From Escherichia coli (GTDB taxonomy: Bacteria > Pseudomonadota > Gammaproteobacteria > Enterobacterales > Enterobacteriaceae), in the NCBI RefSeq assembly GCF_016903815.1, contig NZ_CP069973.1: 64,000 nt of DNA. One strand, 5' to 3'. Numbering within the stretch: position 1 is the first letter of the stretch; the number at the start of each line of letters is the position of its first letter. The translations under genes and the position numbers were made by a program. Shown here one piece after another: positions 8,703 to 13,626 of this stretch. Below the pieces are notes generated by a model, which searched no databases, was not told the DNA's origin, and saw nothing but the letters and a program-made list of their open reading frames with translations.

Positions 8703-9830
8703 TTACGCCATTGTCCCAATCGTCTTCCTAAATCGCAGCAGTGCGATGGTGAAAAACGCGCCGCCAATTGCCATCAGCGTCAGGAACTGCGGCCAGACGA
8801 TTTCGAATCCGGCACCCCGGTAGAGGATGGCCTGCGCGAGGCTAACAAAGTGTGTCGTCGGCATGGTCAGCATAATGTCCTGCACCATCTGCGGCATACT
8901 TTCGCGCGGCGTGGATCCACCGGAAAGCATTTGCAGCGGCAGCAGCACCAGAATCACCAGCAGCCCCAGTTGCGGCATTGAACGCGCTATCGTCCCCATA
9001 AAAATGCCGATTGACGTGGTGGCAAACAGACTGAGCGCCACGCCCAGCATAAACAGCGGGATCGAGCCTTCAATCGGTACGCCCAGCACGCCTTTTACCA
9101 TCAGCACCAGCGATAATCCCGATACCACCAGCACCACCAGCCCCATCGACCAGATCTTCGCCATCATGATCTCAAACGGCGTTATCGGCATCACCAGTAA
9201 GTGTTCCACCGTGCCGTGTTCACGCTCGCGGATCAGCGCCGATCCGGTCAATACAATCGCCAGCATAGTAATGTTGTTGATGATCGCCATCACCCCGCCA
9301 AACCACGCGGGATCGAGGTTCGGGTTAAAGCGCATCCGGGTTTCCAGCGATACCAACGGTTCGCTATTATCACGGTAGCGCGCGACAAAGCTGTTCACTT
9401 CACCGTTGATAATATTCTGGATATACCCATTGCCGGTAAATGCCTGGCTCATGCGCGTGGCATCGACGTTCACCTGAATATCTGGCTGGCGTCCGGCGAG
9501 GACATCACGCTGAAAATTAGGCGGAATATTTATCGCGAAGGTATAGCGTCCGGCGTCCAGCCCGGCATCCATCTCATCGGCGGTGATCATCTCCGGTGGC
9601 AAAAACCACGGGCGATAGAAGCTGTTAACGATCCTGTTCGATAACTGCGATTGATCCATATCGGCAATGGCGATCGGCGCGAGGTTCAACGATCCTGGCG
9701 TAACGGTCGCTGACGAATACACCGACACCGTAAACGAGAAGACAATCAGCGTCAGCATCGCTTTATCACCGAGCAAACTGCGCAACTCTTTGATACCCAG
9801 ATTAAAAATATTGCGTAAATGGCGCATCAT
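8703..9830 (-). CDS. yhhJ: ABC-2 family transporter permease YhhJ
   Basis: Start set at MMRHLRNIF with AGGAGG RBS. The ATG overlaps the rbbA stop (ATGA). Multi-pass membrane protein. Confidence 0.9.
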
Positions 9831-12562
9831 CCCTCCTGTTTTTTCAGCAGCAGGATGCTTAAGCCCATCACCAGCGGGATGGCTATCAGCAACGGGATAA
9901 AAAGTTGCCACAAATCAGTCAAATCCAGCGCCTTCGAGAACGTCCCGCGGGCAATAGTCAGAAAATGACTGGTCGGGTAAACCTCGCCGATCCAGCGTCC
10001 TGGACCTTCCAGCGAAGCTACCGGATCAATCATCCCGGAAAACTGTGTCGCCGGGATCAACGTGATAATCGCCGTACCGAAAATAGCGGCAATCTGGCTT
10101 TTCATAAAGGTGGAGATCAGCAGCCCCATTCCGGTGGCGATGATGATATACAGCAGCGCCGCCAGGGTGAGCGTCAGGAAACTGCCTTTATGCGGTACGC
10201 CAAACACAAACACCGACAGGCCGCAGAGCAGGAAAAAGTTCAGCATCCCCAGCGCGATGTACGGTAGCTGTTTGCCAAGCAAAAATTCGCTACGGGTGGT
10301 GGGAGTCACGTAAAGGTTGATAATCGACCCCAACTCTTTTTCCCGCACCACGCTAAGGGCGCTTAGCATTGACGGGATCATCATCAGCAGAAGCGGGATC
10401 ACCGCCGGAACAATCGCTGGCAGGCTTTTTACGTCCGGGTTATAGCGATAGCGCGTCTCAATGTTCATCAGCCCGCTTTGGCTGGAGGGTGTGGATTGTC
10501 GGCTCGCCACATCCTGTAGCCAGCTCTGGTGCATAGCCTGCACGTAACCTTTTACCGTTTCGGCACGACTGGGCATCGCACCGTCGATCCAGACACCGAG
10601 TTCCACAGGCGTACCACGCGCGATATCGCGCCCGAAATTGGGTGGGATCTCAATCGCCACCGTGATATCGCCCGCACGCATCCGGCGATCCAGTTCGTCA
10701 TAACTGGTGAGCGGTGGTTGTTCGATAAAGTAACGGGAACCGGAGAGATTGAGCGTCCACGCCTGGCTACTGACGGTCTGGTCGCGGTCAAGCACCGCAA
10801 AGCGCAGGTTTTCCACATCCATACTGATGCCGTAACCCATTATCAGCATCAGGATCACCGTTCCCATCAGCGCCAGCGTCGAACGTACCGGATCGCGTCG
10901 CAGTTCCAGTGCTTCGCGACGGCTGTAGCTAAACAGACGGCGCAGACTAAATCCCTGACGCGGCGCGTGGGTGGCGTCGTGTACCACGGGCGGCGCTTCG
11001 GCTTCGCTGCTCTGCCCTGCCGCTTCCTGCAAATAGGCGATAAATGCCTCTTCCAGACTGGCGGCTCCGCGTTTCTCAACCAACTCCTGCGGTGTACCGC
11101 TGGCGAGCACTTTTCCGGCGTGCATCAGTGAGATACGGTCGCAACGTTCCGCTTCGTTCATAAAGTGGGTGGAGATGAAGATAGTCACTTTGTCCTGACG
11201 CGAGAGATCGACCATCAACTGCCAGAACATATCCCTCGCCACCGGATCGACACCAGAAGTAGGCTCATCGAGGATTAACATCTCCGGGCGATGAATCACC
11301 GCCACCGCCAGCGAAAGCCGCTGGCGAATGCCGAGCGGTAATGACTCCGGCAGAACATCTTCAACGTCGTTGAGCTTAAAACGCTCGCTCATTTCAGCCA
11401 CTCGCGCGGGAATTTCCGCTTCCGGGATGTGAAACAAACGGGCATGTAACTCAAGGTTTTGCCGCACGGTGAGTTCGTTATAGAGCGAAAACGCCTGCGA
11501 CATATAGCCTACCCGACGGCGAGTATCGATATCTTTTGGATCAACCGGTTGCCCGAACAGCCACGCCTCACCTTCGCTGGCGGGCAGCAATCCGGTAAGC
11601 ATTTTCATGGTGGTGGATTTACCGCAGCCGTTCGAACCAAGAAAACCAAAAATCTCCCCGCGTGGAATGCGGAAATTGACGTGATCAACGGCAACGAAGG
11701 AACCAAAACGCATGGTCAGATCGCGCGCTTCGATGGCAATCTCTGCGTTTTCAGGTTGATATGGTGGGATCACTACCGCCTGATGCGCCTGGCGTTGCGC
11801 TTGCGGTAACAGATTTATAAATGCTTCTTCCAGCGTGGCGCTTTGCGTTTGCTGCCGCAGCTCTTCGGCGCTGCCGGTTGCCAGCACTTCTCCGGCATTC
11901 ATCGCTACCAGCCAGTCGAAGCGTTCGGCCTCTTCCATGTAGGCGGTGGCGACCAGCACGCTCATATTGCTCTGCCGCTGGCGAATACTGTCGATCAGAT
12001 CCCAGAACTGGGCGCGGGAGAGCGGGTCAACCCCCGTTGTTGGCTCATCAAGAATCAACAGTTCCGGGTCGTGGATTAACGCACAGCACAGCCCCAGTTT
12101 TTGCTTCATCCCGCCGGAGAGTTTCCCTGCCGGACGATCACGAAACGGTGCTAACCCGGTGCTGGTCAGCAGCTCATTAATTCGCACTTCTCGCTCCGCT
12201 TTGTCGTGACCGAACAGGCGGGCGAAAAAATCGACGTTTTCATACACCGACAAGGTGTGGTAGAGGTTTTTACCCAGCCCCTGCGGCATCCAAGCGATGC
12301 GCGGGCAAACGTCGCGTCGATGCTTCGGGTCGCGCATATCGCCGCCCAGCACGATCACATTGCCCTGCTCAATGACACGAGCACCGGAAATCAATGACAA
12401 TAAACTCGACTTCCCGACGCCATCCGGACCAATCAGCCCAACCATGCAGCGGGTCGGAATATCGAGAGTGATATTGTTCAGCGCAACGGTTTTTCCATAA
12501 TGCTGGCTCACGCCCGCCAGTTGCGCGACAGGCGGGACGGGAACCAGTTCCAGATGCGTCAT
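9827..12562 (-). CDS. rbbA: Ribosome-associated ATPase RbbA (tandem ABC ATPase domains fused to a permease domain)
   Basis: 911-aa ORF with two Walker A motifs ([18 protein letters not shown]) and ABC signatures ([16 protein letters not shown]), plus a C-terminal membrane domain. Confidence 0.9.
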
Positions 12563-13626
12563 TGCGGCAACCTCACCACCAGGTCGTCAGGCCACGGAAG
12601 TTCTTCATTCACCCGCACCCACGCTACGCCCGGCAAACCGGTTTTGACATATTCCAGATGCTGCTGGAGTAATTCCGGTGGGATACGCGCTTTGACGCGG
12701 AACATCAGTTTCAGCCGCTCATCGCTGGTTTCGACGGTTTTTGGCGTGAACTGGGCGACGCTGGCGACAAAACTGATGGTTGCAGGAATACGCAGATCTG
12801 GCGCGGCATCGAGGATCAGCCGGGCTTCACCGCCCAGTTTCAGCGTGCCCGCCTGTTCGGTTGGCAGGAAGAAGGTCATATAGACGTCGCTCAGATCGAC
12901 CATATTCAGCACCCGACCGCCTGCCGCCAGCACTTCCCCTGGCTCGGCAACCCGATACTGCACGCGTCCGTCACGCGGGGCTTTCAGTTCGCTGTCATCG
13001 ATATCTGCGGCAATGCGCCGTTCAGTGGCTTGTGCGGCTTCGACGCGTGTTTGCGCCTGAATGATATTGGTGCGTGCCGCTTCTATAGCGGCTTTAGAAG
13101 CCGAAACCTGGGCTTTTGCTGATTCCAGCGCAGCTCGGGCGCTCTCAGCGGCGGCGCGATCGTCATCCAGCTGTTGCGCAGAAATAGCCCCTCGTTGGGC
13201 GAGCGAACGGGAACGCGTATGACGTTTGGCAACGGAGTCCAGTTCGGCCTGGCGTTGATTGACCAGCGACTGTGCGGCACGAGTTTCGCTTTGGCGTTGC
13301 TCCAGCAAAGCCTGCGCGGCGGCAACGGCGCTTTGTGCTTCTTTGATTTGCGCGATGGCTTCCAGTCGCTGTTCCTGCAACACGCGAGTATCCATCTTCG
13401 CCAGCACTTCACCTTCGCGAACAAACTGGCCTTCTTTCACCAGAATGGTGTCGATACGCCCGGCAATTTTGCTGGCGATATCCACTTCCGTCGCTTCAAT
13501 GCGCCCATTGCTGACGGCAAAGCCTTCCGGCACACCCGCTGGGCGCAACAGCCACCACGCCACGATAGCGGCCACCGCCAGTAACCCGACAACCCACCAC
13601 GCCAGATGGCGCTTACTCTTATCCAT
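12559..13626 (-). CDS. yhiI: HlyD-family periplasmic adaptor (membrane fusion protein) YhiI
   Basis: 355-aa ORF with N-terminal TM segment and long Ala/Gln-rich coiled-coil region. Stop overlaps the rbbA start (ATGA). Confidence 0.9.

Follow-up and report, generated by a model that had tools for sequence, protein, structure and literature searches.

Very probably, the Rho-attenuated yhiY-yhiI-rbbA-yhhJ mRNA of Escherichia coli encodes an adaptor-dependent ABC-2 (type V) exporter, whose overlapping genes would tie the synthesis of its subunits together. A single mRNA would run from a sigma-70 promoter just after yhiJ through yhiY, yhiI, rbbA and yhhJ, and under laboratory growth Rho would halt much of this transcription early. 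RbbA would give both ATPase domains and one membrane domain and YhhJ the second membrane domain, so that the pump would require RbbA and YhhJ in a 1:1 ratio, and immediate re-initiation at a -4 and, most likely, a -1 overlap would link the production of the subunits. Earlier records already cover the operon and its promoter, the leader ORF, Rho attenuation and, through annotation, the overlaps; the locus has little value as a discovery, and the gain lies in clarifying the role of RbbA and in a corrected yhhJ start.

The window is the whole stretch of DNA that was analysed, 64,000 nucleotides of the E. coli chromosome, in which yhhJ, rbbA and yhiI all lie on the minus strand and span positions 8703-13626. 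The ORF check found again the three reading frames proposed by the sequence-only reading, on the minus strand and with the ends it gave. YhiI (12559..13626, minus strand, 355 aa) is a HlyD-family periplasmic adaptor, or membrane fusion protein, which matches the Pfam models HlyD_3, HlyD_D23 and Biotin_lipoyl_2. As expected of an adaptor, HlyD_3, HlyD_D23 and RND_mfp are above their cutoffs (TIGR01730 RND_mfp, 118.5 bits against 94.9). A hydrophobic segment at residues 8-26 forms the single N-terminal membrane helix. Its nearest solved relatives in a PDB sequence search are EmrA and MacA, and this search retrieved no solved structure of RbbA, YbhF, YhhJ or YhiI.

RbbA (9827..12562, minus strand, 911 aa) combines a pair of ABC ATPase domains with an ABC-2 (type V) membrane domain in one fused chain; the Pfam matches are two copies of ABC_tran and one of ABC2_membrane_3. 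The protein scores 1594.9 bits with the NCBIfam equivalog model NF033858, which has a cutoff of 1050, and its residues 12-910 align on positions 1-908 of the model. The ATPase domains are separated by a spacer of ~30 residues and both have Walker A, Walker B and the catalytic Glu, as in exporters. The ATP sites form an asymmetric pair, since one of them is degenerate (LPLGI signature, Tyr208), and this degeneracy is shared throughout the family. The membrane domain has six helices, with hydrophobic segments at residues 560-905.

YhhJ (8703..9827, minus strand, 374 aa) is an ABC-2 permease that would pair, as the second membrane domain, with RbbA. It matches Pfam ABC2_membrane_3, has a loop of ~140 residues between TM1 and TM2 and is 28% identical to RbbA residues 589-911, the ABC2_membrane_3 domains of the two proteins (RbbA 569-903, YhhJ 25-364) being paralogous. 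The AlphaFold model of YhhJ is of moderate confidence (pLDDT 70, pTM 0.59), and at this pLDDT of 70 its best Foldseek matches are the type V exporters ABCH-9C, NosY, ABCG25, ABCA and KpsM.

The sequence-only reading had described the layout as exporter-like, and the domains, the paralogy with YbhGFSR, the outer-membrane factor genes in homologous operons and the predicted fold all agree with it. Together they support an adaptor-dependent ABC-2 (type V) exporter, for which transport activity and the use of TolC are presumed. The genes for adaptor, RbbA and permease follow one another in this order in 79 of 80 loci, which come from several phyla. Directly upstream, on the same strand, a gene of the OEP family of outer-membrane factors is present in 24 of 79 homologous loci (~30%). 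By the annotation of the window, the E. coli yhiI-rbbA-yhhJ operon lacks a gene for an outer-membrane factor, and the literature searched reports no substrate of YhiI-RbbA-YhhJ.

The YbhGFSR pump, a reported drug exporter which is thought to use TolC (PMC7190983), is paralogous to this system part by part: YhiI is 30% identical to YbhG, RbbA residues 1-513 are 41% identical to YbhF, RbbA residues 539-875 are 32% identical to YbhS, and YhhJ is 24% identical to YbhR. The cecR-ybhGFSR genes have the same order and likewise tight junctions (-1, -8, -8, +10), and YbhF shares with RbbA the degenerate second signature (LPLGF in YbhF) and the Tyr in the first H-loop. RbbA differs in joining the ATPase and one permease in one 911-aa chain, while YbhF and YbhS are separate proteins. 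Unlike cecR-ybhGFSR, the yhiI operon has no gene for a TetR-type regulator, and has the yhiY uORF and Rho attenuation instead. MacAB-TolC is also similar, being an ABC pump with a periplasm-spanning HlyD-family adaptor and a membrane subunit with a large periplasmic region, and YhiI weakly resembles MacA in sequence (E about 1e-4). MacB adopts the four-helix FtsX/type VII fold. In contrast, YhhJ and RbbA carry ABC2_membrane_3, and the model of YhhJ fits type V exporters.

A published catalogue lists 'yhiI-rbbA-yhhJ' as a single unit of transcription and gives TAGACA-16-TACTAT as its constitutive RpoD promoter (PMC3946193). The consensus scan finds this sigma-70 promoter, with a TG extension, at 13960..13987 on the minus strand as the sole minus-strand promoter-like site, and none inside yhiI, rbbA or yhhJ, so the proposed operon stands with one published promoter. 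A published construct of the 'entire 5' UTR' begins with GAGACTG, at window position 13953 (bioRxiv 10.1101/2020.07.18.207399), and its primer places the transcription start probably near 13953. The leader ORF yhiY (13689..13802, minus strand, RefSeq annotation) encodes 37 aa and ends 62 nt upstream of yhiI; it matches Pfam PF23514 with 98.7 bits, and its translation is backed by ribosome profiling (bioRxiv 10.1101/511675). Thus the operon proposed from sequence holds for the three genes, but the unit begins upstream of 8703-13626, with the yhiY leader and Rho-dependent attenuation.

The region of yhiY is likely the site of uORF-linked Rho-dependent attenuation. Term-seq places 3' ends at K-12 positions 3630667 and 3630645, which correspond to ~13691 and ~13669 of the window, and the latter is marked as Rho-dependent and 'uORF' (bioRxiv 10.1101/2020.07.18.207399). 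In Direct RNA-seq, reads inside yhiI drop from 793 to 69, and with bicyclomycin from 920 to 410, a partial restoration, while a yhiI fusion increases more than 2-fold in rho R66S (bioRxiv 10.1101/2020.07.18.207399). The residual transcription stops ~536 nt past yhhJ, where reads go from 114 to 1, versus 264 to 150 with bicyclomycin (bioRxiv 10.1101/2020.07.18.207399). An intrinsic-terminator scan gave nothing convincing after yhhJ, the number of sites in the region being within the expectation from shuffles, and published data point to Rho, rather than to an intrinsic terminator, as what forms the 3' end. A 110-nt segment of the yhiY-yhiI spacer folds no better than its shuffles (z = 0.30), which lends no support to a structure hiding the start site. 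At the mdtU-mdtJI locus, too, a small ORF and then a Rho-dependent 3' end precede a transporter operon, and yhiY-yhiI has been listed alongside it as a candidate for leader-ORF/Rho attenuation (bioRxiv 10.1101/2020.07.18.207399). The two differ in that any ligand or stalling mechanism for yhiY is hypothetical. An Rfam scan of 8300-14200 gave only the Listeria rli42 model, whose 25.7 bits fall below the gathering score of 80 and which was judged a chance match, and in a riboswitch-prediction paper the operon appears merely as the neighbour of a distant hit.

At the first junction the yhiI stop and the rbbA start share an ATGA in -4 geometry (12559..12562, minus strand), in the sequence as well as in the RefSeq annotation. 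The overlap is the one proposed by the sequence-only reading: in ...GCCGCAATGACGCAT... the rbbA ATG is at 12562-12560 and the yhiI TGA at 12561-12559. No other start comes into question for rbbA, whose frame is closed by a TGA 27 nt upstream of this ATG. A Shine-Dalgarno-like GAGGT, read directly in the 3' end of yhiI (12570..12574, minus strand), stands 7 nt ahead of the ATG, and homologues have AGG or GAGG at the equivalent position. An in-frame ATG or GTG at -37 ahead of rbbA also recurs in many homologues and is put down to a Trp codon that is conserved in the adaptor; in E. coli it is not the rbbA start, since an in-frame TGA comes after it.

The second junction, AGGAGGGATGATGCGC, contains ATGATG (9825..9830, minus strand), in which the rbbA stop TGA is at 9829-9827 and yhhJ starts either at the ATG 9827-9825, with a -1 overlap, or at the in-frame ATG 9830-9828, with a -4 overlap. 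The last rbbA codons, for K-Q-E-G, hold a Shine-Dalgarno AGGAGG (9832..9837, minus strand), 4 nt from the annotated ATG and 1 nt from the first one. CAGG(AG) is found in the codons of the conserved C-terminal KKQE of RbbA in 79 of 80 homologous loci.

Overlaps of stop and start codons are an ordinary feature of bacterial operons. In the 64-kb window 5 of ~35 co-directional neighbour pairs overlap (three by 4 nt and two by 1 nt), and 24% of 2,987 unidirectional pairs of E. coli fall between -8 and +6, most often at -4 (PMC10666635). Comparison of homologous loci nevertheless indicates that the overlaps at both junctions are conserved and not accidental. The -4 overlap of adaptor and RbbA is found in 68 of 79 loci from several phyla (ATGA in 53, GTGA in 15), the distance from RbbA to the permease lies between -4 and +3 in 72 of 80 loci, and 36-mers across the yhiI/rbbA and rbbA/yhhJ junctions are exact in 4788 and 5061, respectively, of 5426 E. 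coli genomes. The tight translational coupling that the sequence-only reading drew from the overlaps is plausible at both junctions from this geometry and conservation. Both pairs are co-directional, with ATGA at 12562-12559 and TGATG (or ATGA) at 9830-9825, and in both the Shine-Dalgarno motif is within the 3' end of the upstream gene, GAGGT at 12574-12570 and AGGAGG at 9837-9832, so a terminating ribosome could re-initiate at once on the next gene. The pairs hyfHI, astDB and ydbH-ynbE, as well as menDH, similarly show overlaps of -4 or -1, with a Shine-Dalgarno motif within the upstream gene, and their products form one complex; their coupling was measured with reporters, while the present junctions are known from sequence.

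The overlaps could instead reflect compact packing, with rbbA and yhhJ mainly freshly initiated at their own Shine-Dalgarno motifs and with little dependence on upstream translation, which seems rather unlikely. Besides being very common, such overlaps here have good motifs with workable spacing at both starts, and since rbbA and yhhJ each have their own motif, independent initiation is possible, as in bioBF. The predicted folding of 110-nt segments at both junctions is no stronger than that of shuffles (z = 0.33 and -0.50); no unusually stable local structure masks the start sites, and there is therefore no sign of structure enforcing dependence on an upstream ribosome. Reporter assays of five native E. 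coli ATGA pairs bear on both sides, as bioBF was uncoupled and the other four were coupled (PMC6728339). Coupling drops steeply as distance grows, and subunits of heteromeric complexes are 4.5-fold overrepresented among pairs at short distance (PMC10666635). Packing alone fits poorly with a -4 geometry kept in distant lineages, with a second junction that stays within a few nucleotides in most loci and with products that would be obligate partners, all of which argue for coupled synthesis.

The choice of the yhhJ start decides the form of the second overlap. The ATGA proposed there is present as a tetranucleotide at 9830-9827, but annotation, homologues and Shine-Dalgarno spacing make the second ATG the more likely start. 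In RefSeq/PGAP for this strain, as in the MG1655 record, yhhJ begins at 9827-9825, with 374 aa and a 1-nt TGATG overlap. With the first ATG (9830-9828) as start, the protein would have 375 aa and both junctions a true ATGA; this codon is in frame, overlaps the rbbA stop in the commonest coupling geometry and is ATG in Escherichia, Pseudocitrobacter and Kluyvera. Such a start is nonetheless improbable: Citrobacter has GTG in the first position and retains ATG in the second, and the first codon is missing from most homologues; the permease of distant homologues mostly starts with Met-Arg, which matches the product of the second E. coli ATG. Moreover, AGGAGG ends just 1 nt ahead of the first ATG, too close for Shine-Dalgarno-assisted initiation under established spacing rules. 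At the yhhJ junction the overlap is thus most likely of 1 nt instead of 4 nt.

RbbA has historically been described as a ribosome-bound E-site ATPase that releases deacyl-tRNA, a description surviving in its product name, which would make its gene partners incidental or RbbA a factor and a transporter at once. Purified RbbA without its membrane domain modestly alters translation in vitro, where some non-standard amino acids are incorporated 1.3- to 2.1-fold more and others less (PMC12096078), although micromolar amounts of the fragment were present in those assays. The year 2025 saw the retraction of a main in vivo paper for the ribosome link, which had associated RbbA with 30S ribosomes and YhjD (PMC12169533), and this makes the question timely. 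The ABC-F proteins (EttA, Uup, YbiT, YheS) share with RbbA the tandem ABC ATPase domains in one chain and, given the in vitro results, effects on translation, but they are soluble and have the PF12848 linker, whereas RbbA has a six-helix ABC-2 membrane domain. The linker model (ABC_tran_Xtn) scores 45.8 bits on the EttA control and has no match in RbbA residues 1-530 at E <= 1. The ATPase domains are far closer to YbhF (41%, 231 bits for the best segment) than to EttA (26%, 95 bits). The synteny with adaptor and permease, and often with an outer-membrane factor, is conserved across phyla, and the entire operon is deleted in the viable strain DGF-298, which shows it to be dispensable and speaks against an essential ribosomal role. 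A role chiefly in translation is consequently very unlikely. The comparative evidence weighs strongly for RbbA as the motor of an exporter that spans the envelope, and against RbbA as a translation factor, because of the conserved gene order, the ~30% of loci with outer-membrane factor genes, the absence of the ABC-F linker and the asymmetric ATP sites.

Highly improbable is a bifunctional RbbA, in which membrane-anchored pump ATPases would also dock on ribosomes and directly link export or membrane tethering to translation, as is its milder variant, in which YhiY would sense the pump substrate, stalling the ribosome and thereby setting Rho attenuation.

Plus-strand ORFs within the operon are without annotation and were taken as antisense noise. 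The locus itself is found in 5413 of 5426 complete E. coli genomes, and E. coli strain 7/2 has 100% identity to all three ORFs.

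The yhiI-rbbA-yhhJ operon is already known, and its stop/start overlaps are ordinary but conserved; what is added here is one correction, to the yhhJ start, and one extension, comprising the yhiY leader, the promoter and Rho attenuation. The window is E. coli chromosome, identical (100%) to strain 7/2 over 8500-13900, and the three ORFs lie on its minus strand at 12559-13626 (yhiI), 9827-12562 (rbbA) and 8703-9911 (yhhJ, longest form). The locus is found, at ≥80% query coverage, in 5413 of 5426 complete E. coli genomes.

The sequence-only reading placed ATGA overlaps at both junctions, which is correct for yhiI/rbbA and only partly so at the second junction, where the ATGA exists but yhhJ most likely starts at another ATG. 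At the first junction (GCCGCAATGACGCAT), the ATGA is common to the rbbA ATG (12562-12560) and the yhiI TGA (12561-12559), and this ATG is the sole possible start because a TGA lies in the rbbA frame 27 nt upstream. The comparison set comprises 80 loci of Alpha-, Beta-, Gamma- and Deltaproteobacteria, Verrucomicrobia and Planctomycetes, whose RbbA homologues share 66-98% identity; the YhiI-type adaptor gene is visible in 79, and 68 of these have a 4-nt overlap between the adaptor stop and the RbbA start (ATGA in 53, GTGA in 15). The 36-mer across this junction is exact in 4788 of 5426 E. coli genomes. Many homologues also have an ATG or GTG in the RbbA frame 37 nt upstream of the adaptor stop's end (window 12590-12600), where the adaptor has a conserved Trp codon; the E. 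coli copy runs into an in-frame TGA and is thus unusable as an rbbA start.

At the second junction (AGGAGGGATGATGCGC), the tetranucleotide is present at 9830-9827, with the rbbA TGA at 9829-9827, but yhhJ is annotated from the next ATG (9827-9825, 374 aa, 1-nt overlap) both by PGAP for this strain and in the MG1655 record. This second ATG is favoured because Citrobacter has GTGATG at the same position, distant permease homologues mostly start with Met-Arg, like its product, and AGGAGG ends 4 nt before it and 1 nt before the first ATG. The distance from RbbA to the YhhJ-type permease gene is -4 to +3 nt in 72 of the 80 loci, and the 36-mer across the junction is exact in 5061 of 5426 E. coli genomes. 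The Shine-Dalgarno of the permease gene (9831-9845) is embedded in the Lys-Lys-Gln-Glu codons of RbbA (AAGAAGCAGGAG). In 79 of 80 loci these conserved C-terminal codons contain CAGG(AG) ahead of the permease start; the constraint on this stretch is at the protein level or at the RNA level, the two being inseparable here.

Short stop/start overlaps are routine. A hand count from annotation tables gives about 35 co-directional neighbour pairs in the window, with three 4-nt overlaps (RHS core protein/next ORF, 1612-1615; yhiI/rbbA, minus strand, 12559-12562; shuU/heme ABC ATPase, 46568-46571) and two 1-nt overlaps (rbbA/yhhJ, minus strand, 9827; hutX/chuY, 44907). Among E. coli unidirectional pairs, 707 of 2,987 lie at -8 to +6, and -4 is the most frequent distance (PMC10666635). 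The paralogous operon cecR-ybhGFSR has its own junctions, of -1, -8, -8 and +10. Despite this commonness, conservation indicates that the yhiI-rbbA-yhhJ arrangement is under constraint.

The tight coupling proposed from the overlaps would work by re-initiation: ribosomes terminating on yhiI, and then on rbbA, may re-initiate on the next gene, a reading supported by other native E. coli ATGA pairs, of which four of five tested were coupled (PMC6728339). Coupling between E. coli genes fades within ~20-40 nt, and short-distance pairs are enriched 4.5-fold for complex subunits (PMC10666635). Weighing the other way, RNA folding near both junctions is unremarkable, and rbbA and yhhJ each have their own Shine-Dalgarno site.

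The operon assignment stands, with one published promoter and no minus-strand sigma-70-like site inside yhiI, rbbA or yhhJ in a promoter scan. The sole such site in 8300-14200 is TAGACA-16-TACTAT (13987-13960), whose hexamers are those of the constitutive RpoD promoter of 'yhiI-rbbA-yhhJ' (PMC3946193). A construct with 'the entire 5' UTR' begins GAGACTG, at window 13953, seven bases past the -10 element (bioRxiv 10.1101/2020.07.18.207399). The stretch from there to yhiI contains yhiY (13802-13689, minus strand), a 37-aa ORF with its own Pfam family, validated by ribosome profiling (bioRxiv 10.1101/511675). Term-seq 3' ends fall at the yhiY stop and 20 nt past it, the second flagged as Rho-dependent and uORF-associated; direct RNA-seq reads fall within yhiI from 793 to 69, and with bicyclomycin, in partial restoration, from 920 to 410; residual transcription stops ~536 nt beyond yhhJ and is strongly Rho-dependent there; and a yhiI fusion is >2-fold up in rho R66S (all bioRxiv 10.1101/2020.07.18.207399). 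The unit is therefore yhiY-yhiI-rbbA-yhhJ, attenuated by Rho, and a terminator scan found no convincing intrinsic terminator for it. In Escherichia, Pseudocitrobacter and Citrobacter alike, yhiY (13689-13802; fetched loci L004-L008) has conserved ends, MMTTLLP.F and FLLIP(D/E)G, N- and C-terminal respectively, and a constant spacing of ~62 nt from its stop to the adaptor ATG. The two ends fall in different reading frames in Citrobacter; either another uORF is in use there or it is the RNA that is conserved.

YhiI-RbbA-YhhJ is most likely an adaptor-dependent ABC-2 exporter with its subunits made from one mRNA, and the exporter-like layout read from the sequence is supported by its parts, paralogues and homologous operons. 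YhiI is a HlyD-family periplasmic adaptor with a single N-terminal hydrophobic helix, which matches HlyD_3, HlyD_D23 and RND_mfp (118.5 bits, cutoff 94.9) and has EmrA and MacA as closest solved relatives. RbbA (1594.9 bits on the NCBIfam RbbA equivalog, cutoff 1050) carries two ABC ATPase domains and, after them, an ABC2_membrane_3 domain. YhhJ adds another ABC2_membrane_3 permease, with 28% identity to the membrane part of RbbA; both permeases have a ~140-residue loop between helices 1 and 2. Each part has its paralogue among YbhG, YbhF, YbhS and YbhR, RbbA being in effect YbhF with a fused YbhS-like permease. An AlphaFold model of YhhJ (59 homologues; pLDDT 70, pTM 0.59, moderate confidence) best matches type V exporters, namely insect ABCH-9C (E 1e-8), then NosY, ABCG25, ABCA, TarG and KpsM; a PDB search found no structure of the YhiI-RbbA-YhhJ pump. 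In 24 of 79 loci (including L012, L015, L022, L035, L044, L045, L048, L052, L057, L060, L067, L073 and L081) the adaptor is immediately preceded, on the same strand, by a ~490-residue gene, whose L012 representative scores 158 bits on Pfam OEP (outer-membrane efflux protein). The context of these four-gene operons, which run in the order outer-membrane factor, adaptor, RbbA, permease, argues strongly for an envelope-spanning exporter. The arrangement occurs in many non-enterobacterial loci.

The residues of interest in RbbA are 148-152, 208, 408-412 and 466 (within 9827-12562). In the first ATPase domain Tyr208 replaces the H-loop His (TAYME) and the signature LSGGM is canonical, while in the second the signature is LPLGI, not LSGGQ, and His466 is canonical. 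Both H-loop positions are kept in 81 of 81 aligned RbbA sequences, and at least 75 of 81 carry LPLGx or MPLGx as the second signature (six commonest variants). These asymmetric residues, a pattern shared by YbhF, predict one degenerate and one catalytic ATP site.

The name RbbA derives from in vitro work, and product names continue to say 'ribosome-associated'. A primarily ribosomal role draws on a 2025 study in which an RbbA fragment without the membrane domain had modest effects on in vitro translation, of 1.3- to 2.1-fold (PMC12096078), but several findings count against it: the ABC-F linker PF12848 is found in the EttA control and not in RbbA, RbbA is 26% identical to EttA versus 41% to YbhF, the operon is missing from viable reduced or evolved strains, and image concerns led in June 2025 to the retraction of the 2011 PLoS One paper that described RbbA-YhjD-30S association in vivo along with aminoglycoside phenotypes (PMC12169533).

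Downstream of the operon, similarity to many E. coli strains, including O157:H7, breaks off precisely with the yhhJ stop codon, whose last base is 8703, and to others at 8616 (within 8500-8703); these end points probably mark the edge of the variable RhsB/H-repeat region. The neighbour of yhhJ here is a truncated ISAs1 transposase (8115-8513), which adjoins IS1 (7236-7933). On the other side, a second intact DUF4049 gene (15876-17465) adjoins yhiJ, and K-12 MG1655 has the pseudogene yhiL at the matching place.
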